A stretch of 64,000 nucleotides of DNA from an uncultured Actinomycetes bacterium (GTDB lineage: Bacteria > Actinomycetota > UBA4738 > HRBIN12): contig CAVSFP010000009.1 in NCBI GenBank assembly GCA_963727185.1, positions 221,702 through 285,701 of the forward strand. The letters are read 5' to 3'. The position numbers were made by a program, and so were the translations under genes. Of this stretch, positions 22,547-64,000 are shown in pieces. The first letter of the stretch is position 1, and each line of letters starts with the position of its first letter. The notes under the pieces are model-generated. The model was not told the DNA's origin. It worked only from the letters and a program-made list of their open reading frames with translations, and did no database searches.

Positions 22547-22584
22547 CGAGCCGAGTCTGGCCCGGCCGACCCTTGGCGCGCTTC

Positions 22585-28558: not shown

Positions 28559-28585
28559 CCGCTCCCCATCAGCGCGACCCTACAA

Positions 28586-33711: not shown

Positions 33712-33986
33712 ACGAGCGCCAGGGTCGCGGCGATCCCGCCGATGTCGAGCAACGACCGAACGTCGGCGACCGTGTTCAGGTCGTGCAGAGCCCGGGTATG
33801 TCGGGGAACGCCTGCCACATGTAGCTGAACCACTCGATGCCCGCCTCCTTGGCCCCCATACTCCACAGGACCGCTGCGGTCGATGAAGTCATCCGCCAGA
33901 ATCTCCCGGGCAACTTCGGGCCGGTGGCCTGCTTGCCACTCCTCGACCAGACGGCGAACGAGGGCCTTGTTCTCCTCCTCGGACAC
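33712..33986 (-). pseudogene. chimeric remnant: frameshifted and truncated SnoaL/ester-cyclase-like gene joined to an 83-bp fragment of an ABC-2 permease gene
   Basis: From GTG 33986 the frame reads VSEEENKALVRRLVEEWQAGHRPEVAREILADDFIDRSGPVEYGGQ. After a frame change it reads GAKEAGIEWFSYMWQAFPDIPG. At about 33,797 it runs into ..LHDLNTVADVRSLLDIGGIAATLALV. That stretch (33712-33794) matches 15709-15791 inside the ABC-2 permease with 4 mismatches in 83 nt. Confidence 0.65.
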
Positions 33987-34969: not shown

Positions 34970-34984
34970 GATCCCTCCCCTTCC

Positions 34985-35010
34985 CTCGGGTACCGATCTC
35001 TGATCCCGAG
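34985..35010. promoter_or_regulatory. conserved dyad CTCGGG-N14-CCCGAG directly upstream of the small-gene RBS (also at 42765-42790)
   Basis: It is identical in both module copies. Copy 2 additionally carries a ~12-bp near-tandem duplication of one arm (CTCGGGTACCtc/CTCGGGTACCga). It could be an operator or an RNA hairpin. Confidence 0.35.
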
Positions 35011-35082
35011 GCTAGAGAGAGCACCGACCCGAGGAATCCCCGAAACCCGTACCGATCGAGACGGTGACCGGTAGGTCTTGGC

Positions 35083-37882: not shown

Positions 37883-37935
37883 GACGCTCTCCCCGCGCTC
37901 GGTGGATGCCAGGATTCTAAGGATGGCGGGTCCGA
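37883..37935 (-). promoter_or_regulatory. conserved upstream region of the LAL gene with -10-like TAGAAT (copy 2: TACAAT at about 45,691-45,696)
   Basis: The homologous segments are ..CCGCCATCCTTAGAATCCTGGCATCCACCG.. and ..CCGCCATCCTTACAATCCTGGCGTCCACCG.. Each lies about 31 nt upstream of a TTG start at the equivalent position, with GGGAGAG-type SD boxes between. Confidence 0.4.
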
Positions 37936-38061
37936 ACCTGCGCCTCGATCACTCCGAGCTCCCGTGCCGTCTGTCGCGGGTCCACCTCGAGGTCGCCGGT
38001 CGTGAGCGTCCCTGAGTTTCCCCAAGTTGCGTCCGGGGAGCGTTGATTGCACCATGCGCGC

Positions 38062-41076: not shown

Positions 41077-41766
41077 TTAGCTCTTGGCCTCAAGCGCGGC
41101 AACAGCCTCCGTGTCGAAGCCTTTGACGATCAACCAGATGCCGAGGCCGAACTCGAAGACCGCGACCGGGAGCGCAGAGAGCCCCGCGAACCCGCCGGTT
41201 CGGTCGATCGTTCCGGAGAGCACAAGCAGGTAGCCAACGACGAGCAGGGGTGCTCCGATGATGCCGATCACCGATAGCCCTCGCGGCACCAGGCGCGACT
41301 TGTACAGCATGTAGCCGAGCAATAGGTCGCAGACGGCGGGCATGAAGCTTTGCCCTAGCAGGAAGATGCGGTTGTAGAGGGCAACGAGCGCGTGGCTCAC
41401 CGCGAGGCCTCCTGTTCCAGCGCCGTCCAGCCGCAGGGTCACGATCGACAGGATGAACGCTACCCCGACGAAGATCGTGGCGGACTCCAGGATGCGGGCC
41501 GCGACAAGACCGAGTGCGAACGTCTCGTTCTGCTTCTTGAGTATCGGGAACAGGATGACGGCGGTGGCGATGCCGGCGAGAGCCACGATGATCTCCAGGA
41601 TGCCGCCGACGATGGCAGCCGTATTCGAACCCGAGCCAAGGAGGTAGTTCGCGCCCTTAACTGAGCTGTACAGAGCGATCGAAGGTATCGAAACGAAGGT
41701 GAGCACATACGCGATGCCTGCGGCGAGGGAGATCCTTCTCTGTGAAGACGCTGCGGTGGTATTCAT
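41077..41766 (-). CDS. DUF4386-like membrane protein (paralogue of 17028..17810)
   Basis: ATG 41766 gives MNTTAASSQRRISLAAGIAYVLTFVSIPSIALYSSV.... It has the same TM pattern as the other DUF4386-like gene. Confidence 0.7.
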   Translation of the reverse strand: MNTTAASSQRRISLAAGIAYVLTFVSIPSIALYSSVKGANYLLGSGSNTAAIVGGILEIIVALAGIATAVILFPILKKQNETFALGLVAARILESATIFVGVAFILSIVTLRLDGAGTGGLAVSHALVALYNRIFLLGQSFMPAVCDLLLGYMLYKSRLVPRGLSVIGIIGAPLLVVGYLLVLSGTIDRTGGFAGLSALPVAVFEFGLGIWLIVKGFDTEAVAALEAKS

Positions 41767-41976
41767 ACGTCTACTGTCCCCCCTTGATCGTTGACTACTG
41801 CGCCCGCGCCGCCTACTTGGCGCCGTGTGTCTCATCCTGCCAGATGCTCTCCCACCAGTGGTGCCACTGCCATCTTCGCAAGCCGACTGGCCAGATATCG
41901 CCTTGTCGGCAGTCCCCAGCTGGCTTGAGTCCCATTCCCCGGTCTGGGAGGCAGAGTGTACGCATTAGGTGCTATC

Positions 41977-42314: not shown

Positions 42315-42737
42315 CTATCGTCCAGCCGAGGACCGCGGGAAGATGATTCCTTGGTCGCACCCGACACAGGAGGGCAGGGAACGTGACCGAGCAAGCGCCC
42401 CAGCAAACCTCGGGAAGATGGTTCCTTGGTCGCACCCGACACAGGAGGGCAGGGAACGTGACCGAAGAAGCGCCCTAGGAACACCCGAGAAGATGGTTCC
42501 TTGATCGCATCCGACACAGGAGGGCAGGGCGCCCGCGTTCGCCGAAGCGCCGACCCGCTCGGCCCGCTCACCATCCCTTGCCACACTCGTAACGGAGCGA
42601 TCGCCGCGTACCGCCACGGTGAGCGCCAGGGCGCTCATGATCAGCGCCGCGGCCGCAAGAACGGACACCGTTACGGTCCAGAACGTGAACAGCGCCGGTC
42701 GGCCGGAGAACCTCATGGTTCCCGCTTTCGTGCTCAT
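42315..42737 (-). CDS. membrane-anchored protein with 3 x 25-aa CxxC-containing tandem repeat (copy 2 of the paralogous pair); coding status of the repeat part uncertain
   Basis: The N-terminal ~50 aa are almost identical to 34520..34969 (MSTKAGTMRFSGRPALFTFWTVTVSVLAAAALIMSALAL). The C-terminus is three repeats of SLPSCVGCDQGTIFP(R/S).....(S)R. The repeat part uses many low-GC3 codons (tgt, caa, gga, ctt, tca), unlike neighbouring genes. Confidence 0.45.
   Translation of the reverse strand: MSTKAGTMRFSGRPALFTFWTVTVSVLAAAALIMSALALTVAVRGDRSVTSVARDGERAERVGASANAGALPSCVGCDQGTIFSGVPRALLRSRSLPSCVGCDQGTIFPRFAGALARSRSLPSCVGCDQGIIFPRSSAGR
42337..42530. repeat. 75-bp tandem repeat x about 2.6
   Basis: The units start at about 42,337, 42,412 and 42,487. 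The first ~52 nt of each unit are nearly identical (GGGAAGATG(A/G)TTCCTTGGTCGCACCCGACACAGGAGGGCAGGGAACGTGACCGA). The last ~23 nt are more diverged. Confidence 0.85.
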
Positions 42738-42861
42738 GAATCCCTCCCTTCCCTCGGGTACCTCCTCGGGTACCGATCTCTGATCCCGAGGCTAGAGGGA
42801 GCATCGTTCCGGGGAATCCCCGAAACCCGTACCGATCGAGACGGAGACCGGTACGTCTTGC

Positions 42862-48547: not shown

Positions 48548-48784
48548 GGAAGTCCGAGAACCCGCCAAGGATCACTTAGATGTGGAGTCAGCACGCGCCC
48601 CGGCGCGGGCAACCCCCATTAACCAGCTGAGCGCTCGTCCCCCACACACGCCTCGGAGGCGCCCCGGAGGGCCGAGGCGCCTCGACACGGATGGTACTCA
48701 GCAGCAGTCGGGCGGACAGCAATCGGGCGGGCAACCGGGATCCTGCATCGGACTTCGCCTCCTCTCACATCGATGGTGGTCGAT

Positions 48785-48817
48785 ATATTGACCAAAGAGA
48801 TAGACGGCTGTCAATAT
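48785..48817. promoter_or_regulatory. inverted repeat ATATTGAC-N17-GTCAATAT overlapping a TTGACC(-35)/CAATAT(-10)-like promoter and the arsR start
   Basis: Read directly from the sequence. The right arm overlaps ATG 48816. The spacing would place a transcription start near GTG 48825, suggesting a possible leaderless mRNA. Confidence 0.45.
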
Positions 48818-49169
48818 GTGCGTCGTGAAGCTCATCCAGCAGATCGACGCAACCTGTTGCCCCTCGTTCGCCGAGGCACCTCTCGGCGATCGGGAGGCCG
48901 AGGGCCTCGCCGCAGCGCTCCGCGTCGTCGCAGATCCGACGCGCCTTCGGCTGCTCAGCCTGATCGCAGCCAGCCCGAACCGGGAGGGATGCGTATGTGA
49001 CCTCACGGCGCACCTAGGTTTGTCGCAACCCACGGTCTCGCATCACCTCAAGGTGCTGAGTGAAGCCGGAATCCTCTATCGCGACAAACGCGGCCGCTGG
49101 GTCTACTACCGGATCAACACCGAACCGCTGGCGGCGTTGCAGGCGGCACTGACGCCGGCGTTCGCGTAG
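48816..49169 (+). CDS. arsR: ArsR/SmtB-family metalloregulator
   Basis: The HTH reads LGLSQPTVSHHLKVLSEAGIL. A CVC motif in GCVCDL corresponds to the As(III)-binding ELCVCDL of R773 ArsR. An additional N-terminal CC pair (DATCCPS) is present. An alternative start is GTG 48825. Confidence 0.85.
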   Translation: MCVVKLIQQIDATCCPSFAEAPLGDREAEGLAAALRVVADPTRLRLLSLIAASPNREGCVCDLTAHLGLSQPTVSHHLKVLSEAGILYRDKRGRWVYYRINTEPLAALQAALTPAFA

Positions 49170-49192
49170 GCACCCGGCGGGCCGATGGACAT

Positions 49193-50311
49193 GTGTCGAT
49201 GAGCGTGGACTGGAACCCGCTGCCCAGCTTGCTTCCACCCGTGATCGTCGTCGGTGGCGGCCAGTCGGGTCTGGCGGCCGCCCGAGCTCTGCGCGAGCTA
49301 CAGATGCCGACCGTGATCCTGGAGGCGAGCGACCGTCCAACCGGATCGTGGCCTCGCTACTACGACAGCCTGCGCGTGTTCTCGCCGGCTGCATACAGCT
49401 CGATGCCAGGGATGCCCTTTCCGGGTGCGCCTGATCGCTACCCAGGTCGTGATGAGGTGAGCGATTACCTGGAGCAGTACGCCGCCCGGCTCGACGTCGA
49501 GATCCAGACCAACACCCGCGTCGAGACGATCCGGCAGGACCGAATGGCGTTCCTCGTCCTGACCGGGGACGGACGTGAACTGCCCGCATCAGGCATCGTG
49601 GCCGCGAGCGGGTCGTTCTCGAACCCCTATCGCCCGAGCTTCGTGGGCGAGGAATCCTTCGTTCGCGAGCTGTCGCACGTCGCCGACTACCGCAACCCGA
49701 CGCCGTATGCCGGCAAGCGAGTGATCGTCGTTGGAGCGGGCGACTCCGCCGCGCAGGTCGCCAACGAACTCGCACCGGTCGCGGCGGTCACGATCGCCAC
49801 CCGCCATCCCTTGCGGTTCATCCCCCAACGGCTGCGGGGCCAAGACGTGCACTACTGGCTTCGCAGGACGGGGTTCGACACCTTGCCGGCGGTCTGGTTG
49901 AGCAAGATCACCGGGGGCAGCGTGGTGACCGACAGCGTCGGGTTCGAGCAGACTCTCGCTGAGGGCCGCGTCGATCGCCGTCCGATGTTCGTCGCGCTCG
50001 ACGGAGAGCGGGTCGTCTGGAGCGACGGCCAACGGGAACCGGTCGACGCGATCATCCTCGCCACCGGATACCGGCCCGGTTTGCACTACCTGCGCCAACT
50101 CGGGTCTCTGGACGAACACGGAACTCCGCTGCACGTCGGCGGCATCTCATCGACGAACCTCGGCTTGGTCTACGTCGGCTTGGAGTTCCAGCGCTCCTAT
50201 GCCTCAAACACGCTCAGGGGCGTCAGCGAGGACGCGAGAGCGGTGATCGCACCGCTCGTCTCTTGGATCCGCGACGCGCCCACCACGGTCGGACTTGGAC
50301 CGCCGCCTTGA
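49193..50311 (+). CDS. FAD/NAD(P)-binding flavin monooxygenase-like oxidoreductase (ArsO-like)
   Basis: VIVVGGGQSGLAAA is an FAD GxGxxG motif. A second dinucleotide motif is VIVVGAGDSAAQVA. It lies directly downstream of arsR. Confidence 0.7.
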   Translation: MSMSVDWNPLPSLLPPVIVVGGGQSGLAAARALRELQMPTVILEASDRPTGSWPRYYDSLRVFSPAAYSSMPGMPFPGAPDRYPGRDEVSDYLEQYAARLDVEIQTNTRVETIRQDRMAFLVLTGDGRELPASGIVAASGSFSNPYRPSFVGEESFVRELSHVADYRNPTPYAGKRVIVVGAGDSAAQVANELAPVAAVTIATRHPLRFIPQRLRGQDVHYWLRRTGFDTLPAVWLSKITGGSVVTDSVGFEQTLAEGRVDRRPMFVALDGERVVWSDGQREPVDAIILATGYRPGLHYLRQLGSLDEHGTPLHVGGISSTNLGLVYVGLEFQRSYASNTLRGVSEDARAVIAPLVSWIRDAPTTVGLGPPP

Positions 50312-50473
50312 GATCACGCTGACAAGAGGGTCCCCCTTTGAGCGGCGTCCACTCCCGGGCTGCATGAAGGACGCGTCGACAGCCAAACTGACAGCAAAGC
50401 GTATCGACGTTGGCGGGCGACGCCGGACGCTAGAAACTCAACGGGTACCCACGCCTGCATCCTGAGCCTCCTT

Positions 50474-50491
50474 GCCGTCTGACCGTGTGTC
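50474..50491 (+). repeat. 18-bp exact direct repeat, left copy (GCCGTCTGACCGTGTGTC) at the left edge of the lower-GC island
   Basis: It is identical to 61493-61510. Confidence 0.9.
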
Positions 50492-50578
50492 ACGGCGAAG
50501 CCAGCAGACGGGCCATCCGAAGTCCGTGCTCGGCGAGTGGTTCGCCAAGGCAAAGACCGACCGCTGATAATCGTAAGC

Positions 50579-50965
50579 TCATGCACGTTCATTGGCCCCA
50601 TCTCCAAGCCAAACGATTGCGTCTATCTCGACGTCGAACCCGATTAGATTCGACTGAATCGCTGTTCTGGCGGGCAGCGGCTCGATGAAATGCTTGCGAT
50701 ACTCCTCATCCATCTCTTCCCAGTCGCCGAGGTCCCTTAGATAGACGCCTACACGAACGGCGTTCGTTATCGACCCGCCCTCGGCACGGGCAGTCGCATC
50801 TAGGTTCGTCAGTGCCTGTCTGACCTGATCCGCGACCGATACGCCAACACGATTGCCTTGATTGTCAAATGGCCCCTGGCCGGTGAGGAACAGGAAGTCA
50901 CCCACCCGGATTCCCTGTGAGTAAGAGCCCGAAACCGGAGGAGCCTCGCTAGACGTTGCTTGCAT
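50579..50965 (-). CDS. RidA/YjgF/Endoribonuclease L-PSP family protein
   Basis: SGSYSQGIRVGDFLFLTGQGPFD...ALTNLDATARAEGGSITNAVRVGVYL...PARTAIQSN...VEIDAIV matches the family pattern and is intact. Confidence 0.85.
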   Translation of the reverse strand: MQATSSEAPPVSGSYSQGIRVGDFLFLTGQGPFDNQGNRVGVSVADQVRQALTNLDATARAEGGSITNAVRVGVYLRDLGDWEEMDEEYRKHFIEPLPARTAIQSNLIGFDVEIDAIVWLGDGANERA

Positions 50966-51053
50966 GCGCCTCATTCATCGCTCCCGTCACTTGTCGGTGT
51001 CAACCCCAGTCGTGCGGTCACTCTGGAACAACCATCCACTTGAAGCGCCCAAA

Positions 51054-52019
51054 TCATCCGTATCGGACTCGCGGGTCGAGGAAGGCGTACAATATGTCAA
51101 CGATCACGTTGGCAGACACGATGAAGAATGTGCCCAGAAGAGTGACGCCTGCGATCGCTGGTATGTCTGCCGCCCTCACCGCCTGGTAGGCGTAGAGTCC
51201 GATACCCGGAAGATTGAAGATGGTCTCGACGACCACTGCCCCCCCCAGAAGTAGAGCAAGATCGAGACCGAATAATGTGACAATGGGCGTCAAGGCACTC
51301 CTGAGCCCGTGCCTGAGGATGATCCGTCGCTCAGTTAACCCCTTTGCTCGCGCGGTCCGGATGTAGTCTTGGTGCATGACCTCAATGAGATTGCCACGGG
51401 TCATCCGCGCGTACCAGGCTGCGTAGCCCAGGGCGAGGGCAAACCACGGCAGGACCAGATGGCAACCCCAAGATGCCGGACTTACCGAAAATGGAACGTA
51501 TCCTGGGCCGCAGACAAGATGCAGCTTGAACCAGAAGAAATACAGCAGAAGTAGCGATAGCCACACCACGTACATCGAAACGCCGACGAGCGCGAACAGC
51601 ATCGCCACCCTGTCGACAAGCGATCCCTGCCGTGTCGCAGAGATGATTCCGATCGGAATGCCCATCAACAGCCAGATCAACGTAGCACCCGCTGCGAGAG
51701 AGATCGTCACCGGAAGCCGCTCAATGAGCTCCGTGCGAACGGGCACGAAGTTTTGGAAATGAGAAGCCAAGACCCGGCCAGCCGTACTGGTCACCGAGGA
51801 ATAGGCGTCGGATGAAGAGGCCGTACTGAACGAGCCGTGGTCGATCGGTGCCGAAGATATGTCGCAAGATCGCGATCGTCCGAGGCGTGGCACTCGCCTG
51901 GCAGCGAGCCTTGCGGGATCGGCCGCGGGGAGCAAGAAGAAAACGGCGAAGACAACCGCGCTCACCAGCAGGAGCGTGATGAAGGCCCAAAGCATCCGCC
52001 GCAAGATGTACCGACTCAT
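51054..52019 (-). pseudogene. DppB/OppB-type ABC permease with an internal out-of-frame segment
   Basis: The long ORF is open. However, residues ~40-95 (RRVPRLGRSRSCDISSAPIDHGSF...) are nonsense. The expected sequence (ATPRTIAILRHIFGTDRPRLVQYGLFIRRLFLGDQYGWPGLGFSF) sits in another frame (ORF 51721..51990). Two compensating indels are implied. Confidence 0.6.
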
Positions 52020-52059
52020 GGTCGCGTCATCCCATCCTCGGAGGGATGGACGTCCTCAT

Positions 52060-53043
52060 CTAGGGCCTCTTGGGGCTCAGCGCATCTTGGAGACCGTCGC
52101 CTAGGAGGTTGAAGGCGAGCGTCGTCAACAATAGAAAGAGTCCTGGGAAGAACATGTACCAGGGCGCGACCTGTAGACACCGTTGATCGAGGCCTCCGAG
52201 AACATCGCTCCCCACGATGGCGTTGTGGGGCTGACACCCACCCCCAGGAAGGACAAGGTCGCTTCGAAGAGGATGTTGTTCGGGATGATGAGTGTCGTAT
52301 AGACGATTATCGGTGCCGGCGATGTTCGGCAGCACCTCCCGGAACATGATTCGGGTTCCGCTCTCACCGAGAGAGCGTGCAGCCTCCACGAATTCGCGAT
52401 GTTTGAGCGAAAGCGTCTGTCCCCGAACGATCCGGGCGATGTAGGGCCAGTTGGCGAAGGCGATGATGATGACGATCAGGAAGAGTCCCGGCTTGAGATG
52501 ACCACCTAGACACCCCTGAACCGTGGCTGAACAGGTGGCGGCGATGCCCATAGCGAGCATCAAGATCGGGATGGATAGCACGACGTCCATTGATCTGGAA
52601 ACAAGCGTGTCTGCAAAGCCACCCCGGAAGCCGGCTATGAGTCCGAGCACGACACCGATGAATACAGAGAGGCCCGTCGCCACGAACGCGATGAGGAGAG
52701 AGGTTCGGGCTCCGTAGATCACCCGCACGAACAGGTCCCGTCCCACGCTGTCAAAGCCGAACCAAAAGTGACCATTCGGTCCCTTAGGAAGTCCCTCTAC
52801 CGTCGTCCCCTGGAGGGTGTACAGGGTATTGGGCGGGTGGTGGACCACGAACCTGACGATGAGCCCGGCGCCGAAGGCAACCGTCGTGAGGAGAATGACG
52901 AAGATCCCGCCGGCCATTGCGAGCCGATCCTTTCGCAGACGCCGCCACACCATCTGCCACGGTGTCCTCGCAATGACTGCTGGAGCAAGCTCAAGTTCTT
53001 CCGCGCCAACCCCGAGGTCCGCAGCGTCTCCTAGATGCTGCAC
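52060..53043 (-). pseudogene. DppC/OppC-type ABC permease with an internal out-of-frame segment
   Basis: The main frame loses sense after ..MFREVLPNIAG. The expected APIIVYTTLIIPNNILFEATLSFLGVGVSPTTPSWGAMFSEA is in ORF 52125..52367. The main frame then resumes with PWYMFFPGLFLLLTTLAFNLLGDGL. Confidence 0.6.
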
Positions 53044-53205
53044 CCATTCTCCCCATCAGATGCCACGCCGGGTCTCCTCAGTGCTCTTCTCCATCGCGGC
53101 CGCTCCAGCAGGGCTCGCGGAGCTTCTTGGGATTCCACCTCCTTGACAGGCCGAAGTGAAACAACCTAGGGTGTTTATGTCAATGACGCATGGACGTTTC
53201 ACTAT

Positions 53206-54075
53206 ATGACACAAGCATCGGTTCAGACGCTGGGTCGAGGCCTCGATGTGCTCGAGTACTTGGCCGAGAAAGGGGAAGCGCGTCTCTCCGAGGTGGCCGA
53301 GGAGCTTCGCGCCTCTCGGGCAACCGCGTTCCGCGTTCTGTCTACCCTGCGGGCCCGTGGTTACGTGGAGCACATGCGCGAAAGTCGTACCTACCGCCTC
53401 GGTTTCGGGCTTCGAGCCCTTGCGGCCCGCGCGGACGGGTCGTCCATCGTGGCTCGCTCCGTTCCGGGCATGGGCGAGCTCCGCACGTCAACCGGGGAAA
53501 CAGTGAACCTTGCGCTGCTGCGTCGGGGTCGAATCGTCTACGAACTTGTGCTGGAGGGGTTCCACGTGCCGCGGATGGAGGCGGTCGAGGGACAAGACGT
53601 CCCGGCACACGCCACCGCGTTGGGGAAGGCGATCCTGAGCCAGCTGCCGTTCGAATTCCAAGCGGCCCTCCTTCCGAGTGAGCCCTTCCCGGCGCTTACG
53701 TCACGCACCGTCACAACCCGCGCCGCCCTCGAGAAGCAGCTACGGATCGTTCGCAAGCGGGGCTATGCCGAGGACAACGGCGAGGGCGATGTCGGCGCCT
53801 TGTGCTTGGCCGCACCCATCCTCGACGGAGCCGGTGAAGTCGTTGGAGCGATTTCGGTGTCTGGGCTAGCCGCTCGGATCCCGACGAACAACCGACGCAG
53901 CATCGGAACAGCCCTTCGCGAACAGTGCGATCGAATCTCTGCCGAGCTTGTCGGGAAAAGAACACACCCTTTAGGGATCGATTCGAGGCTCCGCAAGGAC
54001 GTGGGTATGATGATCCGGCCGGGCGGCGTGCCTCGTATGCCTAATCAGCCATCTGCGAAGGGAGGTCATGATTAA
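53206..54075 (+). CDS. IclR-family transcriptional regulator
   Basis: The N-terminal wHTH is VQTLGRGLDVLEYLAEKGEARLSEVAEELRASRATAFRVLSTLRARGYV, followed by an IclR effector domain. The gene is intact. Confidence 0.88.
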   Translation: MTQASVQTLGRGLDVLEYLAEKGEARLSEVAEELRASRATAFRVLSTLRARGYVEHMRESRTYRLGFGLRALAARADGSSIVARSVPGMGELRTSTGETVNLALLRRGRIVYELVLEGFHVPRMEAVEGQDVPAHATALGKAILSQLPFEFQAALLPSEPFPALTSRTVTTRAALEKQLRIVRKRGYAEDNGEGDVGALCLAAPILDGAGEVVGAISVSGLAARIPTNNRRSIGTALREQCDRISAELVGKRTHPLGIDSRLRKDVGMMIRPGGVPRMPNQPSAKGGHD

Positions 54076-55960
54076 AGCATCCACGAAGCTCAGTCGACCA
54101 TTCACACTGCGGCTCGCACTCAAGACCGTGCATGCGCGCTCGCCGTTGTCCTGGTAATGGCGGCATGCACATCTTCGAGCTCTAACTCTGCCACGAACAC
54201 CCCGTCAACTTCCGAAAACTGCGACCTCCTCCTCGCAACTACAGTTGGGCGGCGTGCTCAAAGTCGGGTACCTATTTGACTTCGGGGGCGGCCTGGATCC
54301 GGCTCAGAACTATGACTTCGGCTGGGGTGTCCTGCGACTGATGACCAGGACTCTTTATGCATGGACGGAGACCACGGGCTCCGTCTCGCAGTTGGCTCCG
54401 GATATCGCTGAAAAGATGCCGAAGATCTCGTAGACTGGTCTGACGTATACGATCTCCATACGGCAAGGAGTGAAGTTCGGACCTCCTTTGGACCAGCAGG
54501 TCGTGTGCGCCGACTTCCAGACCGCCTTCGAGCGGATGTTCTCGCCCAACGTGCCGGCCGCCTACAACTTCTATTACACCGTGATCCAGGGTGCGAGTAG
54601 TTTTCAGTCGGGGAAGTCTAAAACAGCATCTCTGGGATTACCTGCCCTAACGACGAGACGATCGTATTCAAGCTCACCCAGCCCACCGGTGATTTCTTGG
54701 CTCGGCTCACTCTGTTTGCGGCTTCGCCAGTTCCGGCCGTAGCCGTCAAAGGTCACGATCAAGACTACGGAAGGTTCATCGTTTCGACGGGGCCCTACAC
54801 CTATCAAGGTATGAGTGCTGTGGACTTCTCTTTGCCAAGACTCCGCCCAGACTCCGCCACCCGGGTATAGCCCGAACAAGTCGATGACCCTTGTTCGCAA
54901 TCCTGACTGGAGTCAGAGTACGGAACGTGATTCGGAATGCATATCCGGATGAGTATCCCCGCTATTACGTTCGGAGGGGAGACCCAGAGCCTGTACGAGC
55001 AGGTGCAATCTGGCGCCTTAGACGCTGTAGAAGGTGATGCCATCACACCTCCCCAGGTACTCAGTTCCTACAGCTCGAACCCGTCCCTCAACGATTTTTG
55101 GTACTCGCGCCAGCTCCTCGGCGTGCGTCACGTCTACATCAACGTAACGACCCCGCCATTTGATGATGTCCACGTTAGAAAGGCGATGAATTGGGTCGTC
55201 AACAAGGCTTCACTGGCGCGATTGTATGGGGGACCAGCCTTCGGCCAGATCGCCACGCATGTCCTCTCGGCGCCTGCTGCCGACCCCGCCGTTCCAGCAT
55301 CCTATGATCCCGAACAGAGCACTCCCGGAAGTCAGGGGAGTGTGACCAAGGCCAAGGCAGAGATGATGCTCTCGAAGTACGCACACGAACCAAGACGGAC
55401 TCTGTGACGCCGCGGTCTGGCAAGAACGTCGTGGTGGTTGTGCCGAGTACCCCTCCCACACCGAGCGTCTTCACTTCGATCATGGCCGACCTGGCGAAGA
55501 TCGGGATCACGGGGCGGATTCAGTCCGTGTCGTCGACGACATGGCAGACCTATCAAGAGCGATCCCACGAAGAACATTCCGCTGGGGTACAGCCAATGGG
55601 TCCAGGACTACAACGACCCCTATACGCTCTTCGAACCGCGCAGATACGGCGCCATCGGAAAACCAGGAAGCAACTCCAATTACTCCCTCGTTACCGATCC
55701 CCACGTGACTTCTGAAATCGCCAGGTGCGAGGCCCTGCTGGGGAACGCGAGAGCCACCTGCTGGGCTGGGTGACCAGTACCTGATGGAAAGTGTTGTGCC
55801 ATCGTTCCGTTCCAGGTGTGGGAACGCCGTCCGCGTTCTTCTCGACCAACGTGGCCAATGTTCCGATCCCATGGGTGTCGGATCTCGCGACAGCTATCGA
55901 TGCCCTGGCGGATGCCGGCCGAAATCCAGGCCACGGCATCTCAGGTGAAGAGTGCCTAGT
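54068..55960 (+). pseudogene. family-5 ABC substrate-binding lipoprotein, fragmented over all three frames
   Basis: Pieces include the lipoprotein signal ALAVVLVMAAC|TSSSSNS (about 54,130). Others are GGVLKVGYLFDFGGGLDPAQ (54245..), KFGPPLDQQVVCADFQTAFERMFSPN (54470..), HVYINVTTPPFDDVHVRKAMNWVVNK (54937..) and YSQWVQDYNDPYTLFEP (55438..). The end coordinate is approximate. Confidence 0.7.
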
Positions 55961-56087
55961 GACGTGGAGGGGCTCGAAGATGAGATCATGGGCGGGGACA
56001 GCACCCAACTTCGGGGCGGCGACCTCTGCGACCTCAATGTCGTCTGGATGGTGGGACCGAGCGGAGCGCCGGAATCGGGAGGATTTG

Positions 56088-57545
56088 ATTGAGAGTTGGC
56101 GTCGGAGGGATCCTCCACGAGACGAATACGTTTGCGAGCGGCCTGACGAACGGCGGACTTCCGCGCCTATCAGTACGCCGAGGGCCGAGAACTCCTCGAG
56201 TACGAGAGCACGGGGTCTGAACTCGGAGGGGTGCTGTCTGAGCGCAGAGCTTGGCTGGACGGTTGTGCCGACGATAGGCCGTCCCGGGTGGCCGCGTCGA
56301 ACATCGGGCTTACCGCGCACTTGCGGACGGCCTCATCGAGGCACTGGCGGCAGACGACCAGCTGGACGGCGTCCTCCTAGTCCTACATGGGGCCATGGTC
56401 ACAACCGCCGAGGAGGATGCTGAAGGGGATCTGCTCGCAAGGGTTCGGAACGGGTTGGCCACGCCGGTGGTCGCAACGCTTGACTTCCATGCGAACATCA
56501 GCCCTCTCGGATGACGGAGAGCGTGGATGCTCTGGTCGGATACGACACGATCCGCACGTTGATATGCGAGATCGAGGTCGAGAGGCGGTCAGGATACTGG
56601 AACAGATCTTGGCCACAGGCCGGCGTCGTGCGGTCTCCCTGAACAAACTCCCACTACTCACCGCTCCCCAAACGCAGCGTACGGGACGCTCCTCCGATTG
56701 AAGGGTGGATGACGTTCTGTACACTAGTGGGAAGCGACCAAGGATGTGCAGGTAACCGTTGCGCCGGTTTCCCGTACGCCGATTCCGACTGCACCGGGAT
56801 CGCTGTGGTGGCGAGCTCGCCGATACCGCCTTGGCGTCTGAAGCGGCGGAGGCCATCGGGCAATTCCATCTGGAGCTGGTGCGATCTATTCGCATACGCC
56901 GGCGTGCGCGTGCAAGAGGCGGTCGACCAGGCCTCCGCGAGCGGGGATACACCGGTCATCTTGGTGGATTCCGCAGATAACGTCGGTGGCGGTGGTCCTG
57001 GAGATGGCACCGCCATCCTCGAAACCGCGGCTTTCCGGGGCTCTCAGATCTCCTTGTCTTCATCGCGGACCGGAGTCGGTCCGGGCGGCAGCGGCGGCAG
57101 GAGTGGGAGCCACCCTCCCGCTCACCGTGGGTGGAAAGACCGACGACCTCCATGGACTACGGGAACTTCAACCGACACCGTGCAGTTGATCTCGCATGGA
57201 CCTACGAGCACGCCAGCGAGTACTTCCAGGGTTACGTCTATTCCGTCGTGGCCTAACGTCGGTACTCGACGTCAGCGGGAACACCGTGGTGCTGACCGAG
57301 AAGAAAGACATGCCATTTGACGCTCAACAGGTGTGCTATCGCTGAGATCGATCCATCCCGATATCAGGCGATCGTAGTGAAGTCGGCGATCGCTTGGCGG
57401 AGTGGCTACGGGCACAGTGCGGGGAAAGATCGAGGTCGATGCCCCCGGCATCTGCACGGGCCGTCTCTCCCTCTGGATATTCAGCCGCGCGGCGGAAGAT
57501 GTTGCCGCCCTCGGAGAGGGCTCAGGTAGATCGGCCATGAAGGAG
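56088..57545 (+). pseudogene. MlrC-like (M81 family) metallopeptidase, multiply frameshifted
   Basis: RVGVGGILHETNTFA (about 56,090) and DGVLLVLHGAMVTTAEEDAEGDLLARVRNGLATPVVATLDFHANIS (about 56,360-56,500, interrupted by a stop) match the family. The C-terminal YQAIVVKSAIAWR.. lies at about 57,370. Boundaries are approximate. Confidence 0.6.
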
Positions 57546-57606
57546 TAGGAGCACCCCTAGAACATTGAGGCCCGTTACCGTGAGTCTCTAGCGCGGAAAC
57601 AAAGAG

Positions 57607-58860
57607 ATGCGAACCTGCATCCCAGGTGGGGTCAACAGCGTGTTCAGGGCGGCAAGCCAGCGTGTCGCTCACTTTCGTACGCGGACACGGCGCCCAGCTC
57701 GTCGACGTGGACGGCTACGAATACGTCGACTATGCCCTGGGGATGCGCATGCATCTGCTCGGCCATGCCCCTCCAGTCGTCACGCGAGCTGTCGCAGCTG
57801 CTTGGAGGATGGACAGCTTTTCCGCCGGGCTCAGCACCCGCGGGAGTCGGAACTCGCGGAGCTCGTAATGCATGAAGCGCATCCGTTGCGCCGAGATGAT
57901 CCGCTTCGATGTCAGAGATGACGCATCTGGCTATCCGGCTCGCACGAGCACAGACCGGACGGCAGCGTTTCATCAGGTTCTACGGGCACTATCACGGTTG
58001 GATGGATCCCGTCTTCATCGACCCGTCATCGGGGCGCAGTGGATGGGGCGAGTGAGTCGATGCTGACCGATGGGCAGTCGATTGCAGGTGGGGCAGACGT
58101 CATCGCACTTGCCTGGAACGATCCTGAGGTCTTGGACCTAGCGTTCGGGAGAGCACAGGGCTGAGATCGGGGCGGTGATCCTGCAGCGATCATGTGCAAT
58201 ACTGCGCGCGCACCCTGCTCGGCCAGGCTACCTGGACAAGCTCCAGAACCTCTGTCGCACCCATGGTGTGGTCTTGATCTTCGATGAGGTGATCACGGGA
58301 TTCCGTGTCAGCCTGGGGGCGCGCAAGACCTCCTTGGGCTCACGCCCGATCTCGCGGTCTTCTCGAAAAGCTATCGGGTCTGGGTTCCCATCCGCAGCGA
58401 TCGCTGGCTCCGGCGACCTGATGGAACCTCCTTGCGGAGGGTCGAGTGGTTCACAGTGGCACATACAACACAGGTGTGGCTGAGATGGCCGCGGCGATCG
58501 CGACGATGCGTTCGTTGATCGAAGACGATCCCTACCCGCAACTTGAACGCACGGGGCGTCAACTGATGCAAGGACTCGAAGACGCAGCGGTGGCGAACGG
58601 TATGGACCTCGTCATCGAAGGACTCCCGGCGGTGTTCCATACGCGATTCGGACCTGAGCAATCACCGATCGACCACGCGCAAGCTTTCGCCAGCTAAGCG
58701 ACGAGGGGTTGAGGAGTCGTTTCGTCCGCGGCCTCCAGGACGAGGGTGTCCGGATCACGTCGCGCGGACCTGGTTCGTGTCGACGGCGCACACGGATCGG
58801 GATGTGGAAAATCACCCTGGGCGGCCGACCGCGTTCTTCATCGACTCCGCTGACGCATGA
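57607..58860 (+). pseudogene. class III aminotransferase (glutamate-1-semialdehyde aminomutase-like), multiply frameshifted
   Basis: The pieces lie in different frames: IPGGVNSV, RGHGAQLVDVDGYEYVDYALG..LLGHAPPVV, GVVLIFDEVITGFRVSLG, KAIGSGFPSAAIAGSGDLM and HSGTYNTGVAEMAAAIATM. Confidence 0.65.
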
Positions 58861-60060
58861 TGGTTGACAGTCACGACAAGCTGGTCACTTCGCTGCATTG
58901 ACTGTGGCGCGTCGTCGCCTGCTGGATCACTTCGCTATCGGTGCTCGTGCGGGGCGAGATGCGCGTGAAGTATCAGTCTCCTTTCGCAATGGACGCGAGT
59001 CGCTCTGGCCTGTGGCGCTATTTCCCCCGCACTTCCCGTCGGATCTCCTGACGCAGTCGTGAGCGAGGCGAAGGACTCCTCCTCTTCTTCCCATGGCTCA
59101 CGCGAACTTCTTCCACCTTGAGCCGGGGCAGGTCGAACGCCGAGTACATCAATCCCAGCGGATCCTTCAAAGATCGGATCGCTTCCGTGCGCGCTTGTCC
59201 ATCGTCGTGCAGCGGCAGCTGGCGGGTTGTTTGGGGAACGTCGTCCGGGGGCGCCGCTGCCGCCTCATACGGGGCTCGTAGCGACCAACAGGTGGTCCTG
59301 CTCACCCTGCCGGAGGCACCGAGCGAGAAACTCCGACAGATCCTCGTCCATGGGGCAAGGTCATCGCAGTCAACGGTCTGGTACTCCGCCGAGGCGACGG
59401 ATCGGGTTGTCGACGTCGTGCGAGAGTTCGCGGTCAGATACAACTTCCTCCCATACCTGACCGGGGTTCGAGATCCGCCAGAGACGAAGGGGCGAAGACC
59501 ATTGCCTTCGAACTGCTGGAGGAGTTGCCTGAGACAACGGTCGTCTATGTTCCGATCGGTGGGGGTGGGCTCCTTACATCCATCTGGACAACGGCTACAG
59601 GGAGGGCGCCGAGCACTTGGAGGGCTGATGGCTTGTTGGCGTACAGCCGGAGGGGAGTGCGACCCTGGCGCCGGCCCTGCGGGGAGAGCCTGGACGTTTC
59701 GCGGGCGACGTGCGCACCTCCATTTCCGGACTGCAAGTCCCAGTTCGGTGTTCGACCCTTGATCGGGAGCTCCTGAAGCGATCAGGGAAACAGGTGGTCA
59801 TGTCGTGCAGGTGGCGGATCAAGAGATATGGGAAGCACAACGCTTCCTCGCGGAGACGGAAGGCATCTTCGTCGAGCCGGCCGGCGACGGCGTTCGCCGG
59901 TCTGGTCGCAGATTCGAGCGCTGGAGGGTTCTCCGGAGGGGACGTGGCCGTTGCCGTACTGACAGGCTCGGGATTCAAGGATCTGAGCGCCATCGACCGG
60001 ATCCTTGGTTCGAGACTCCCCAAGCTCGATCACTCTGGAGCAGGTCCCGAACACGCTCGA
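58860..60060 (+). pseudogene. threonine-synthase-like PLP (fold type II) enzyme, multiply frameshifted
   Basis: An N-terminal zinc-ribbon-like LRCIDCGAS...YRCSCG is present. The PLP lysine motif is NPSGSFKDRIAS (ORF 59118..), followed by ..VYVPIGGGGLL.. and a C-terminal VAVLTGSGFKD, spread over several frames. Confidence 0.55.
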
Positions 60061-60087
60061 ACGGATCAGTGTTCGCCGGGCATCCGA

Positions 60088-61365
60088 ATGACCGTCATCG
60101 ATTCGCGCGATAAGGGCTGGCCTCCACTGGATCAACCCGTAAACAGGACCCAGATCGAACGGCAGCGATGGAACGTCTTGAAAGGCGATCTGCTGCGCTA
60201 CCCACGATGGTGATAAAAAGGAAAGCGCGATCAGCAACAACATCACCCTCATGGCCGAGTACCGCCGCAAGCATGGTGTCTACCTTGGCTCTCGCATGGC
60301 AAAGACGACCATGGCCCCGCAAATCGTGAAGGCGGGCAAGATCGACGCCGGTGCCTGGGGGTTACCGCCGCCACGATCAGCCAGGTGAGAGCATTCCGTC
60401 ACTCCGGAATCGAGCGGATCCTCCTTGCGAACGAATTGGTGGAACCGGCAGCTATCGAGTGGATCGCCCGCGAAGTCGCCCGAGCGCCCGAGTTCCACTT
60501 CATCTGCCTCGTTGACTCCACTCGTAGCGTCGAATTGATGGCGAAGACGCTCGTCTCCTTCGGGGTTTCCAGGCCGCTACGGGTGTTGGTCGAATTGGGG
60601 GTGTCGGGGCGGCGAACCGGTTGCCGGACCTTGAGAGAGGCTCTCGCGGTTCGCACAGGCTGTCACCGACGTTCCCGCGCTTAGCCTTACCGGCGTGGCC
60701 GGCTTCGAGGGCATCATCAAACTGCCAGATGATGACTGCGACGATCGTCGCCGTCGATCGAGTTCCTTTCGGCGATGCGAAAGCTCACAGTTGAGATAGC
60801 TATGCGGGGGATGTTCAGTGGGCAAAAGAAGAGGTCATCGTGAGCGCCGGCGGAAGCGTCTTCGTTGATCCCAAGTCGCGCGGCTTCTCACCGGTTGGGA
60901 TATCGACCCGCGAGTTAGAACCGTGCTTCGATGCGGCGGCATACGCAACGCACGACCACGGGGAGTTCTGAGCGGATATCCCCCCTTGCGGGCCGCGGGC
61001 CGGGTGGTGGCCGGCTTCGTCCAGCACTCGAGATCTGGGCTACCGTGTCTGTCCTGCCCCGAAGATAGGCTTGCGATCGCTGGGTTCGGAAGGCGCGATG
61101 CTCCATTTGATGAAGCGCTCCCCGTTCCTCACGCGACCGTCAGGACGCCGGACGACATGCGCGGGGTTCCACCCGGGGCGCTAACCGTTACTCAACTGAA
61201 CGATCAGCACGGCGTACATTTCGGTTGCCACTGGTTTCGACCTCGCTGTCGGCGATCTGATCGGATGCGGGATAGCTCATCCGTGTACCGCTTTCGATAA
61301 GTGGCGTCGGATACCGGTCGTCGACGACGCTGCTACGACGTCATCGACGCAGTCGAGACCTTGTT
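60088..61365 (+). pseudogene. D-serine-deaminase-like / alanine-racemase-N-domain (DSD1-type) enzyme, multiply frameshifted
   Basis: MTVIDSRDKGWPPL...WNVLKGDLL is followed by KTTMAPQIVKAGKIDAGAWG, then GIERILLANELVEPAAIEWIAREV..FHFICLVDS (ORF 60385..). The C-terminal ..HPCTAFDKWRRIPVVDD lies at about 61,270-61,330. Boundaries are approximate. Confidence 0.5.
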
Positions 61366-61492
61366 TTGCGGTTCCCCTCACCTTCCTGTGAGTAGTCTCA
61401 CATTGAACTCGCCGCAGCAAAGGGAGACGCGGCCCACTCCATCTAGGTCTGACTCGAAGGGCCAAAGTGCTGTCTCCGGGTTGACTGACGGC

Positions 61493-61510
61493 GCCGTCTG
61501 ACCGTGTGTC
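61493..61510 (+). repeat. 18-bp exact direct repeat, right copy, at the right edge of the lower-GC island
   Basis: It is identical to 50474-50491. Confidence 0.9.
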
Positions 61511-61578
61511 CACAAGAACGGCCGCCCCAGCTCCCGCGAGTAACGAACTCGGACCACTGGCTCCGGTAGGGTCCTCAG

Positions 61579-62340
61579 ATGGGCGATATCGACCGCTTCT
61601 TCGCGTTCGAAGCCCATCGTCACTCGCTGCTCAGCACCCGTACGGAGCCGTTCGAGGGCGGCGTCGCGTACTTCGACGACGGGTATCCGGAGAGGTACGT
61701 GTCCAACTTCCTCCTCGTCGACCGCGACGAGGTAACGCTCACCGGCGATCGACTCGCGTCGTTGGCGGACGACATCATGGGTGGCGAAGGGCTCTCGCAC
61801 CGCCACGTGACGGTCCTGGGCGAGCGCGGCGGGCGACTGGCGCCGTCGTTCCGCGACCGCGGGTATGAGGTCGGGAGGATCGTCGCGATGGCGCTTCGCA
61901 GGCCTCCCGATCGTCCCGCCGCCCTGTCGACGGAGGAGCGTTCGTTCGATGAGGTCCGCCCGCTCATGGAGGAGATCTACTGCAGGGAGCTGCCGCGGGC
62001 GCCGGAGACCGCGGATCGTTTCGTCGAGCAGCACGCGGGGTGGGACCGCATCCTCGGCACACGGCGGTTCGCCGCGCGGATCGACGGCACGCTCGCCGGG
62101 CAATGTGAGCTGTACGTGAACGGCGCCGACGCGCAGATCGAGTACGTCGACACGCTCGAGGAGTACCGCGGGCGCGGGGTCGCGCGCGCCGTCGTGCTCG
62201 CGGCCGCCGAGGCGGCGCGCCGCGCCGGGGCCGATCGGGTATTCATCGCCACCGACGAGGACGACGGGCCGAAGCTCCTCTACGAACGCTTCGGGTTCGA
62301 CCCGATCGGCCACGAGTGGGAGTTCACGCGTTACCCCTAG
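61579..62340 (+). CDS. GNAT-family N-acetyltransferase
   Basis: The C-terminal acetyl-CoA motif is IEYVDTLEEYRGRGVARAVVLAAAEAARRAGADRVFI...LYERFGF. Confidence 0.8.
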   Translation: MGDIDRFFAFEAHRHSLLSTRTEPFEGGVAYFDDGYPERYVSNFLLVDRDEVTLTGDRLASLADDIMGGEGLSHRHVTVLGERGGRLAPSFRDRGYEVGRIVAMALRRPPDRPAALSTEERSFDEVRPLMEEIYCRELPRAPETADRFVEQHAGWDRILGTRRFAARIDGTLAGQCELYVNGADAQIEYVDTLEEYRGRGVARAVVLAAAEAARRAGADRVFIATDEDDGPKLLYERFGFDPIGHEWEFTRYP

Positions 62341-62521
62341 GCGCTCCAGAAGGCGTCGGCGGCAGCCTGGTCGAACGGTGTGATCCAGACTTCTTTCGCC
62401 TTGCCATCTTCGACGTGGAACACGAACACCTGCGCCAACGTGGCCGTCTTCCCACGGCGCGTCGCCGTCGCGCTCACGAGCGCGATGGTGTGGTCGTCGT
62501 CGGCGACGATCGCGTGGATCA
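62337..62521 (-). pseudogene. 3'-terminal remnant (about 60 codons) of a SnoaL-like gene, duplicate of 19843..20027
   Basis: It reads ..IHAIVADDDHTIALVSATATRRGKTATLAQVFVFHVEDGKAKEVWITPFDQAAADAFWSA-stop. About 185 bp align with the intact gene at 19.8 kb with about 10 mismatches. There is no N-terminal half and no plausible start. Confidence 0.7.
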
Positions 62522-62544
62522 GGCTCACGACACCGACATCGAGA

Positions 62545-63832
62545 TCACGGCTGATCCTTCCCACGCTCCTCTTCTTCCCGCTGCAGCTGGAGCCGGCGTT
62601 GGCTGCTCATCGCCTGCTTGTAGTGGAGCCGCTTCGCGCTGGTCGCGTCGAACGCGCCCTCCTCCAGGAACGGCAGGTCCTCCTCGATGTCGGCGGCCAG
62701 GCGCGTGAGCTCCTCGGCGTTCGGCGACCCGGCGGCGTGCGACCGGAGCTCGTCGGCCGCTTCGCGGAGCACGGTCTTCGCACCCTCGAAGTCACCCTGC
62801 TGCGCGCGACCCCGCGCGTCGCGCTGGGCCCTCGCCGAGCGCAGGATCACGACCTCCTCGCTCACCTCGGTGTCCAGGCCGGCCGCGGCCGCCTCGTCGG
62901 ACGAGACCAGGTTCACGTTCAGCGGGATCCGGGTCTCGTGCTGCTCGATCTGCTCGCCGATCGAGACGTAGCGCAGCACGACCTCGCCGATCGTGGTCGG
63001 GCCGAGCGTCGGGAGCGACGGCACGTGCAGCGCGAACACGACCCGCCGGGTCTCGCCGCCGTACGCGTCGCCCAGCTGCGTCTGGACGCCACCGTCCACC
63101 TGGACGCACGGGAACTCGTTCAGGACGCCGAGCACCTGCACGTGCTCCGAGCCCCGCACCTCGACGCTCAGGTTCTGCGCCACCAGCGAGACCAGGTCTG
63201 AGAACTCCTTCGCGAAGATGCCGGGCGCGTCGTCGGGCGAGGCGGCATGGTGCGCGCTGCCGCCCGTCGCCATCGCGGTCAGGAGCTCCTCGTCGAAGTC
63301 GTCGCCGAACCCGATCGTGGTGGTGCCCGACGCGCTGGCTCTGCACGGCGCCGTCGGCGAGCGAGACCAGCGAGGGCGCGTCCGTGACGCCGACGTTCGC
63401 CAGGCCGTCGGTCAGCAGCAGGATCTTGCGGATCGCGCCGCGCTCGTCGGCGGCGCCCAGGACCTCGAAGCCCTTCATCCAGCCGCCCGACAGGTTCGTC
63501 TGCCCGCCGGGGCCGATCGACGCGATCGCGGGCGCGAGCGTCGACGTCGGGTTCGCGAGCGGCGACACCAGCCGGACCTGATCGTCGTACGTGATCAGCG
63601 CGATCCGGTCGGTCGGAGCCAGCCGGCGGGCGAGGAACGCGGCGCACTCCTTCGTGACGTCGAGCTTCCGCCCCGCCATCGAGCCGGAGCGGTCGATCAC
63701 GAGCGCCAGGTCGAGCGGCGTGCGCGTGTCGGCGCCGGGCGCTGCCGGACTCGTGATCTCGAGCATGCAGTGGACGTCGTGCTCGGACTCCACGGCGAGC
63801 AGGGCGTGTTCGAAGCGAGCGGAGAGATGCAT
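62545..63832 (-). pseudogene. von Willebrand factor type A (VWA) domain protein, single frameshift (or sequencing indel)
   Basis: The N-terminal ORF 62792..63832 has the MIDAS motif LVIDRSGSM and ..LLTDGLAN. After ..LADGAVQSQRV the sense continues in another frame (GTTTIGFGDDFDEELLTAMATGGSAHHA.., ORF 62545..63273). The join is at about 63,300-63,320. Confidence 0.7.
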
Positions 63833-64000
63833 CGGGGGCCTCCTAGCGTTCGGGGGAAGACGCTTCGAAGGAGAGTGTCACCCAGGCCACTGACACGAAC
63901 AGACGTTCGATGGGTTAAGAGGGAGAACGGCCCTTCATGGCGACCTCCTTGCAGTCTGCTGCGTCGCGATCGGCGGAACCTCCAGCATGCTCAACCGAAG

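Follow-up and report, generated by a model that had tools for sequence, protein, structure and literature searches.

Can an interval of DNA that is bounded by a short direct repeat and that differs in composition from its surroundings be read as the trace of a horizontal acquisition, and can the repeats be taken as the scars of its integration? This question is raised by a stretch of 64,000 nucleotides from the 305,885-bp contig CAVSFP010000009.1 (positions 221,702 to 285,701; assembly GCA_963727185.1) of an uncultured Actinomycetes bacterium (GTDB lineage Bacteria; Actinomycetota; UBA4738; HRBIN12). This whole stretch is referred to as the window in the following, and all positions are counted from its first letter. 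Between positions 50474 and 61510 lies an interval of ~11 kb, here called the island, whose ends are formed by two copies of the 18-mer GCCGTCTGACCGTGTGTC on the plus strand. A preliminary description of the window interpreted these copies as attL/attR-type scars of a horizontally acquired island, whose mobilisation machinery had been lost or was located elsewhere. The analysis described here leads to a qualified version of this view: the interval is probably a horizontally acquired, decaying islet of ~11 kb, and the terminal repeats are probably the scars of its integration. The foreign composition of the island, the native nature of the right repeat copy and the loss of homology to the closest relative at this copy argue for this reading, whereas the lack of an empty site in relatives and a left homology break that lies 100-170 bp off the repeat do not fit a simple pair of attachment scars.

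The island differs clearly from the rest of the window in its G+C content, which is 0.607 inside and 0.672 outside of the interval. Along the sequence, the G+C content falls from 0.65-0.71 to 0.57-0.64 between ~50.3 and 61.5 kb, and the 11-kb segment with the lowest value of the whole sequence starts at position 50500. A likelihood fit with two change points places the boundaries at ~50360 and 61518-61620 (log-likelihood gain of 48.9), and both copies of the 18-mer are located within the 2-log-unit support intervals of these change points, which extend from 49984 to 50587 and from 61367 to 61827. Furthermore, the tetranucleotide distance, calculated for segments of 11 kb, is highest for the segment starting at 50001 (0.0248, compared with at most 0.016 in segments that do not overlap the island), and a GC-phase hidden Markov model (HMM) with native-gene parameters assigns positions 50292-61520 to a single block without native coding periodicity; inside the island, the signal of this model is too weak for frame tracking. 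The drop in G+C content at the repeats, which had been noticed by hand counts on sample lines, is thus confirmed by the change-point fit, the lowest-GC segment and the HMM, and the analysis of G+C content and tetranucleotides proposed at that time revealed a significant shift at the ends of the island, which represents the maximum deviation in the window. The flanks had been assigned a G+C content of 70-80%, which is too high, as their actual content is 65-71%.

A low G+C content could also be reached without any horizontal transfer, namely if a native region lost its selection and drifted. The heavy pseudogenisation of the island would be in line with such a history, and the window contains other native pseudogenes, the gene of a Kup-type transporter and one copy of a gene for a LuxR-type regulator. 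However, the intact genes of the island, which encode a RidA and an IclR protein, also have a low G+C content at third codon positions (GC3) of 0.61 and 0.70, respectively, as compared to 0.76-0.95 in native genes, and the broken kup gene retains native GC and GC3 periodicity. The low G+C content of the island therefore reflects its origin rather than its decay. In addition, none of the relatives carries the block, and the best database relative of the IclR protein shares only 60% identity with it. Drift of a native region is thus scarcely credible as an explanation.

The exact 18-bp repeat and the same orientation of its copies, both reported in the preliminary description, were confirmed, and no third copy is present on either strand of the 64-kb window when up to two mismatches are allowed. 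The bases next to the two copies differ (cctt before and acgg after the left copy, cggc before and caca after the right copy), so that the repeat is exactly 18 bp long. The 120-nt flanks of the copies are not more similar to each other than shuffled controls, which makes this a sharp-edged repeat and rules out that it is the relic of a longer duplication. Membership in a dispersed repeat family, which had been named as a possible objection to the island, was rejected as well: the 18-mer has 8 matches in metagenome contigs of the JGI, all in unrelated contexts and without BLAST similarity to the window, and a scan of viral contigs gave 0 matches.

The mere existence of the pair is weak evidence, because third-order Markov simulations of the window produce 0.27 exact direct-repeat pairs of at least 18 nt per window and at least one exact 18-mer pair in 23% of the simulated windows; a probability of only a few percent, as estimated before, was too low. 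The strength of the evidence lies in the place where the copies sit. The right copy lies a few base pairs from its homology break and the left copy no more than ~120 bp from its own, and both breaks were defined independently, from relatives. With 0.27 pairs per simulated window as the starting point, we estimate the probability of such a placement by chance at ~1e-6 to 1e-5, which bears out the earlier view that a position at both boundaries makes a coincidence less likely. Chance as the reason for the placement of the 18-mer is effectively excluded. The other long exact repeats of the real window are parts of longer paralogous duplications or short-range tandems.

The right end of the island can be compared with the closest relative, L001 (contig CAVRSI010000048.1 of a metagenome-assembled genome (MAG), 'uncultured Actinomycetes bacterium'), which shows ~95% nucleotide identity in this flank. 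The alignment starts at position 61489 of the window, 4 bp to the left of the right repeat, runs through the GNAT gene to 62520 and continues from 62523 to 63910. A single copy of the 18-mer is present in L001, and it occupies the same place in front of the GNAT gene. To the left of it, L001 carries genes for a metallo-beta-lactamase, an MFS transporter, an S9 peptidase, a cyclase-AAA regulator and a CarboxypepD_reg protein, all of which have an ordinary native G+C content and none of which is found in the window; the island is missing at this site. Since L001 has a single copy and homology begins 4 bp left of it, the right copy is native and its left edge forms the boundary of the island, and from the sequence comparison, this end looks like an attR-type junction. 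In two further relatives, L006 and L007, the homology to the GNAT gene of the window begins only at position 61566, and the 18-mer is not present there.

An insertion mechanism that accounts for these junctions is plausible but unproven. The DNA of the island may have entered the cell as a circular molecule. A single reciprocal crossover between the 18-bp sequence of this circle and an identical chromosomal sequence just upstream of the GNAT promoter would duplicate the 18-mer around the insert, thereby generating a direct repeat that resembles attL and attR. The reaction could have been catalysed by a tyrosine-type recombinase, which has been lost since or acts in trans, as in the state known from cis-mobilizable elements (CIMEs), or it could have been carried out by the recombination machinery of the host on the basis of 18 bp of identity; the sequence cannot tell these two options apart. 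If recombination took place at the 18-mer, the junction of the circular form would be expected to read GGTTGACTGACGGC-GCCGTCTGACCGTGTGTC-ACGGCGAAGCCAGC and the empty site CTGAGCCTCCTT-GCCGTCTGACCGTGTGTC-CACAAGAACGG. The left arm of the window does not match that of L001, which calls for a second event in or close to the 18-mer: either the DNA left of the 18-mer was not the same in the recipient as in L001 from the outset, or it may have been replaced by a later rearrangement.

Several observations weigh against an acquisition by integration at the 18-mer. The open reading frames (ORFs) and fragments of the island contain no integrase, transposase or other recombinase domain and all belong to metabolic, transport or regulatory Pfam families; a recombinase was also not found among the ~45 ORFs scanned across the window, in an ORF-based scan that is not an exhaustive six-frame search. 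There is no tRNA or tmRNA gene near the junctions and there are no Rfam matches, and the repeats are intergenic. No inverted repeat surrounds the 18-bp core, and folding of the junctions revealed no significant local structure (z-scores of -0.3 and -1.8). Relatives match the left flank only up to positions 50301-50374, so that homology is lost 100-170 bp before the left 18-mer and not at the 18-mer itself. An empty site, in which the ArsO gene, a single 18-mer and the GNAT gene follow each other, is absent in all relatives that were inspected (two loci of the GNAT scan as well as four GNAT and four ArsO look-up loci). No second genome carries the island, and its mobility is thus undocumented. 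The second event that the left arm calls for weakens the simple attachment-site scenario, yet it hints at a rearrangement-prone point. Finally, the contig was probably assembled from a metagenome with Nanopore reads only, and some of the lesions in the island genes could therefore be consensus errors.

The absence of an integrase, a tRNA and a transposase from the interval had already been stated in the preliminary description and is borne out by Pfam, ARAGORN and Rfam scans. The sole tRNA call by ARAGORN in the window, a tRNA-Ser(cga) at 35802-35893 (92 nt), lies inside a copy of the gene for the LuxR-type regulator, lacks Rfam support and is likely spurious. Scans for promoter or terminator signals at the junctions gave no significant result and were uninformative. 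The lack of mobility genes also bears on the idea that the 18-mer is the target-site duplication of a transposition-type insertion, made by a transposon, a casposon-like element or an insertion sequence (IS) with long duplications. The repeat is exact and sharp-edged, as expected for a target-site duplication, and a few IS families, for instance IS1549 and IS1634, make unusually long duplications. However, the ends of the island do not form terminal inverted repeats, neither a transposase nor a Cas1 domain was detected in its ORFs and fragments, the annotated genes are too closely spaced to have accommodated a further 1-kb gene that was lost, and 18 bp exceed the usual length of 2-14 bp. A target-site duplication is therefore highly improbable, and the identification of the island as a transposon or IS was rejected in view of the missing terminal inverted repeats and transposase domains.

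The left flank of the island consists of the genes for ArsR and an ArsO-like flavin monooxygenase, and this module of 1.75 kb is followed by different genes in different relatives. L008 and L009 (94% identity) match the window from 48630 to 50374, beyond which they continue with a Transgly_assoc gene and other genes; in L020 and L021 (88-89% identity), homology ends at the ArsO stop codon (50301-50315) and other genes follow. On its right-hand side, the module thus has another neighbour in each of the four lineages compared (window, L008/L009, L020 and L021). Because the left homology stops short of the left repeat, the simple picture of an attL site needs an extra event or relatives that have changed. 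A search of related genomes for an empty site between the ArsO-like and GNAT genes had been suggested; none was found, and the two genes are never neighbours in the retrieved relatives. It had further been pointed out that relatives with the same gene block and no repeat would contradict the island; no retrieved relative carries the island.

The right flank has a history of its own. In L006, L007, L010 and L011, of which only L006 and L007 were aligned to the window, genes are arranged in the order ABC-2 exporter, small protein, GNAT and SnoaL. The small protein and the SnoaL protein of these relatives correspond to positions 17793-18179 and 19841-20317 of the window, where a gene of the ornithine-cyclodeaminase family (18776-19732) and an unknown ORF occupy the former position of the GNAT gene. 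The GNAT gene next to the island, together with the adjacent SnoaL remnant, is thus a displaced copy of the small protein-GNAT-SnoaL locus. The window contains a direct repeat of 186 nt with 95% identity (19841-20026 and 62335-62520), which comprises the SnoaL 3' end of the full gene and the orphan remnant. Recombination between these two copies would excise 42.5 kb including the island.

Both flanks are thus mosaic, and the island could be part of a patchwork of small modules brought together by homologous or illegitimate exchange, in which a foreign, decaying segment arrived by a route to which the 18-mer pair is incidental. The frequency of 18-mer pairs in the Markov simulations, the four neighbours of the ArsR-ArsO module, the displaced GNAT gene and the distance of the left homology break from the left copy are all compatible with this explanation. 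It does not account for the right copy lying within 4 bp of the breakpoint of homology to L001, for the presence of both copies inside the support intervals of the change points, or for a placement whose chance probability is ~1e-5; furthermore, apart from a few short-range ones, the 18-mer is the only isolated exact repeat of at least 18 nt outside longer paralogous duplications. A patchwork with an incidental repeat is hence considered unlikely, and an islet that was integrated at the 18-mer is the preferred reading.

What does the island encode? Gene calls were based on Pfam scans of ORFs and stop-to-stop fragments, which revealed nine genes (Table 1). The interval contains a single coherent cluster for the catabolism of peptides and D-/hydroxy-amino acids, and the earlier impression of a functionally coherent gene set that is foreign to its neighbours is supported by both Pfam content and composition. 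The transporter of the island consists of a binding protein and two permeases and comes without genes for ATPases. An intact Dpp/Opp-type ABC system of native composition is encoded elsewhere in the window (26058-32707, minus strand); it comprises a family-5 binding protein of 532 aa, two permeases and ATPase-sized ORFs at 28.6-30.4 kb and makes the ATPase-less transporter of the island redundant. Members of the RidA family quench the reactive enamine and imine products of dehydratases that depend on pyridoxal phosphate (PLP), and the RidA protein of the island may serve as an imine quencher for the PLP enzymes of the cluster. RidA and IclR are singleton clusters at 90% identity among ~15 billion proteins. 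The best IclR relative occurs in unrelated genomic contexts, and no intact syntenic relative of the island was found among the contexts of the IclR matches. A plasmid counterpart was not detected either, as a megablast search was empty and a distant blastn search matched conserved motifs of ABC permeases only.

Table 1. Features of the island and its junctions (window coordinates).
Feature	Position	Strand	Remarks
Left flank: ArsR (48816-49169) and ArsO-like flavin monooxygenase (49193-50311)	48630-50374	+	native composition
99-bp stretch between the end of L008/L009 homology and the left repeat	50375-50473		matches no fetched locus
Left 18-bp copy	50474-50491	+	88 bp downstream of RidA stop codon
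RidA/YjgF (Ribonuc_L-PSP)	50579-50974	-	intact, GC3 0.61
DppB-like ABC permease (BPD_transp_1_N and BPD_transp_1)	51054-52019	-	ORF open; 2 compensating frameshifts
DppC-like ABC permease (OppC_N and BPD_transp_1)	52060-53043	-	2 compensating frameshifts near 52317 and 52177
IclR-family regulator	53206-54075	+	intact, GC3 0.70
Family-5 solute-binding protein (SBP_bac_5), pseudogene	~54148-55773	+	at least 4 frameshifts and 2 in-frame stops
M81 metallopeptidase (DUF1485 and MlrC_C), pseudogene	~56147-57530	+	Pfam pieces in all three frames
Class-III aminotransferase (Aminotran_3), pseudogene	~57584-58700	+	fragments only, stops and frame changes between them
PLP-dependent enzyme (PALP fold, threonine-synthase-like), pseudogene	58998-60030	+	4-8 frameshifts and 2 TGA
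D-serine-dehydratase-like protein (Ala_racemase_N and D-ser_dehydrat), pseudogene	~60217-61390	+	domains in different frames
GNAT-upstream 77-bp segment including the right repeat	61489-61565	+	common to window and L001 only
Right 18-bp copy	61493-61510	+	native copy; upstream of GNAT, same position as the single L001 copy
Right flank: GNAT gene (61579-62340) and 186-nt SnoaL remnant (62335-62520)	61579-62520	+	displaced locus copy; SnoaL convergent

Seven of the nine island genes are pseudogenes, which had been overlooked in the preliminary description, and only the RidA and IclR genes are intact. At least 27 frameshifts or in-frame stops were counted in total, partly with a frameshift-aware protein-to-DNA aligner that was written for this purpose. 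They are sparser in the left 3.6 kb of the island, with ~1 per kb, than in the right 7 kb, where the density is ~3-4 per kb. Each permease gene contains one compensating pair of frameshifts that are ~140 nt apart; in the DppB-like permease, the frameshifts near 51880 and 51744 scramble ~45 residues. Compared with its native paralogue, the gene for the binding protein contains 4 frameshifts as well as 2 in-frame stops (54431 and 54812) within its first 1.2 kb, and its translations show more frame changes past 55400. The remnants of the aminotransferase cover the profile positions 9-55 and 205-289. The gene of the PALP-fold enzyme shows 4-8 frameshifts within ~1 kb when it is aligned to three independent homologues (P0137, P0135 and P0140), and it is interrupted by two in-frame TGA codons, one at 59626 and one at 59760; its catalytic SFKDR motif can still be read.

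Lesions of this kind could have been introduced during sequencing. In the most far-reaching version of this explanation, the block comes from a minority strain or a different organism, metaFlye having threaded it into the contig, and the frameshifts are Nanopore errors. The Microflora Danica long-read project, from which the retrieved relatives originate, relies on Nanopore reads, metaFlye assembly and one round of Medaka (PMC12313526). Split ArsO genes occur on short low-coverage contigs of the same series, and the frameshifts in the permease genes form compensating pairs, both of which are in favour of an artefact. However, assembly by overlap of long reads does not join sequences on repeats of 18 bp, and a chimera would not have the 18-mer on both sides. 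The lesions are clustered, with the island, the kup gene and one LuxR copy being broken and native genes of 724, 967, 532 and 503 aa being intact; several of the lesions are in-frame stops, most frameshifts are located outside of homopolymers, and the RidA and IclR genes are intact within the block. An assembly or consensus artefact is therefore very unlikely. As the lesions are clustered and include in-frame stops, and as the island retains two intact genes, both with foreign codon usage, the pseudogenes seem to be real rather than errors. By our own reasoning, a divergence of ~5%, as seen between the flank and L001, would plausibly go along with a few tens of indels over 10 kb of DNA that is under no constraint, and the probability that two 18-mers stay identical over this divergence is roughly put at ~0.4.

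Outside of the island, the gene for the Kup-type K+ transporter (8760-11422, minus strand) has a native composition and is spread over at least three reading frames. Its stop-to-stop segments extend over 10757-11398, 9611-10753 and 8761-10692, and the GC-phase HMM detects up to six phase changes. The gene is either a native pseudogene or contains a local cluster of errors.

With these features, the islet is a new example of an already known kind, an integrase-less decaying genomic islet in a mosaic region. The direct repeats of classical genomic islands, as known from the pathogenicity-island literature, are 16-20 bp long. Like these islands, the islet deviates in G+C content and codon usage, is flanked by direct repeats of 18 bp, carries metabolic cargo on ~11 kb and is variably present, being absent from its nearest relative L001 at this site and encoding the singletons RidA and IclR. 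Unlike them, it is not inserted next to a tRNA or tmRNA gene, contains neither an integrase nor other mobility genes such as IS or transfer genes, has a mostly pseudogenised cargo and lies between flanks that are non-syntenic in relatives. Actinobacteria also harbour actinomycete integrative and conjugative elements (AICEs) of the pSAM2 type, which carry int, xis, rep and tra genes and use tRNA genes as integration sites, with identity segments that are longer. The islet shares with them the actinobacterial host and the direct repeats that AICE integration leaves behind, but it possesses none of the int, xis, rep and tra genes. An element that exploits the Xer system (IMEX), or a dif module, was also considered and rejected, since the repeat, at 18 bp, is shorter than the ~28 bp of a dif site and lacks the two dyad arms that enclose a 6-bp spacer there; a formal dif model was not part of this comparison.

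In its architecture, the islet resembles the CIMEs, a described category of decayed integrative and conjugative or integrative and mobilizable elements (ICEs/IMEs) that have lost the integrase and keep attL and attR (PMC5704250). The islet likewise has direct repeats resembling attachment sites, of which the right one coincides with the single-copy site of L001, and it lacks recombinase and transfer genes, so that its excision would need an enzyme provided in trans. In contrast to CIMEs, it shows no sign of ICE or IME ancestry, the window contains no tandem ICE or IME, and a cognate integrase is not known. Moreover, CIMEs are mainly found in Firmicutes, at the 3' ends of conserved genes, whereas the repeat of the islet is intergenic.

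It is tempting to speculate that the 18-mer upstream of the GNAT gene serves as the attachment site of a recombinase whose gene lies elsewhere, and thereby as a recurrent hotspot of cassette exchange in this lineage whose cargo is moved in trans. The region upstream of the GNAT gene meets three different left-hand neighbours in relatives, and the window and L001 diverge at the 18-mer; such a hotspot is nevertheless regarded as quite unlikely. If it existed, it would represent a CIME-like system outside of the Firmicutes at an intergenic site without a tRNA gene, and only as such a reusable attachment site for a trans-acting recombinase would the 18-mer be of greater significance. For now, the locus is a routine case of a soil actinomycete that gained and then lost an accessory catabolic cluster, with a redundant island caught in mid-decay beside the native Dpp system. 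The locus also calls for caution in three respects: at a G+C content of 67%, an exact 18-mer pair carries little weight on its own, flanks that are taken as native may be mosaic themselves, and frameshift-rich blocks in long-read MAGs require checks at the level of reads.

Some further features of the window concern the surroundings of the loci described above. Relative to L001, the window is without ~1.3 kb at 62520/62523. L001 has a low-GC block of its own (0.53-0.60) at its positions 13500-16854, right after the segment that matches 62523-63910 of the window and thus beyond the window end. A second stretch without native GC3 periodicity is found in the window at 20216-24026; it has a G+C content of 0.61-0.63 and contains only short ORFs without Pfam matches, and its part from 20798 to 21996 is conserved at 83-86% in L007 in inverted orientation. 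Of the two copies of a direct repeat of 99 nt with 89% identity (15709-15807 and 33712-33810, 18 kb apart), the first is located in the region of the ABC-2 exporter, and both have matches in L006 and L007. A PIN toxin and a Phd/YefM antitoxin (13700-14407, minus strand) as well as a second Phd/YefM-like ORF (14798-15088, minus strand) are encoded beside the variable ABC-2/GNAT-type locus, and L007 carries the same PIN/Phd pair.

The LuxR-family AAA/TPR regulator is encoded by a duplicated segment of ~3.4 kb (34542-37967 and 42332-45765, spacing of 7.78 kb, 80-99% identity). The second copy consists of one intact ORF of 967 aa, and the first copy is split across GC phases (34548-35117, 35118-35929 and 35930-37967) and probably is a pseudogene. 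Three tandem units of 75 nt (100, 92 and 67% identity) are located just downstream of the intact gene at 42332-42556, and a two-copy tandem of 114 nt (spacing of 126) occupies the equivalent place beside the other copy at 34542-34781. Finally, two DUF4386 paralogues are present, one of which (17028-17810) lies beside the GNAT-type locus and the other (41077-41835) beside the duplicated regulator.

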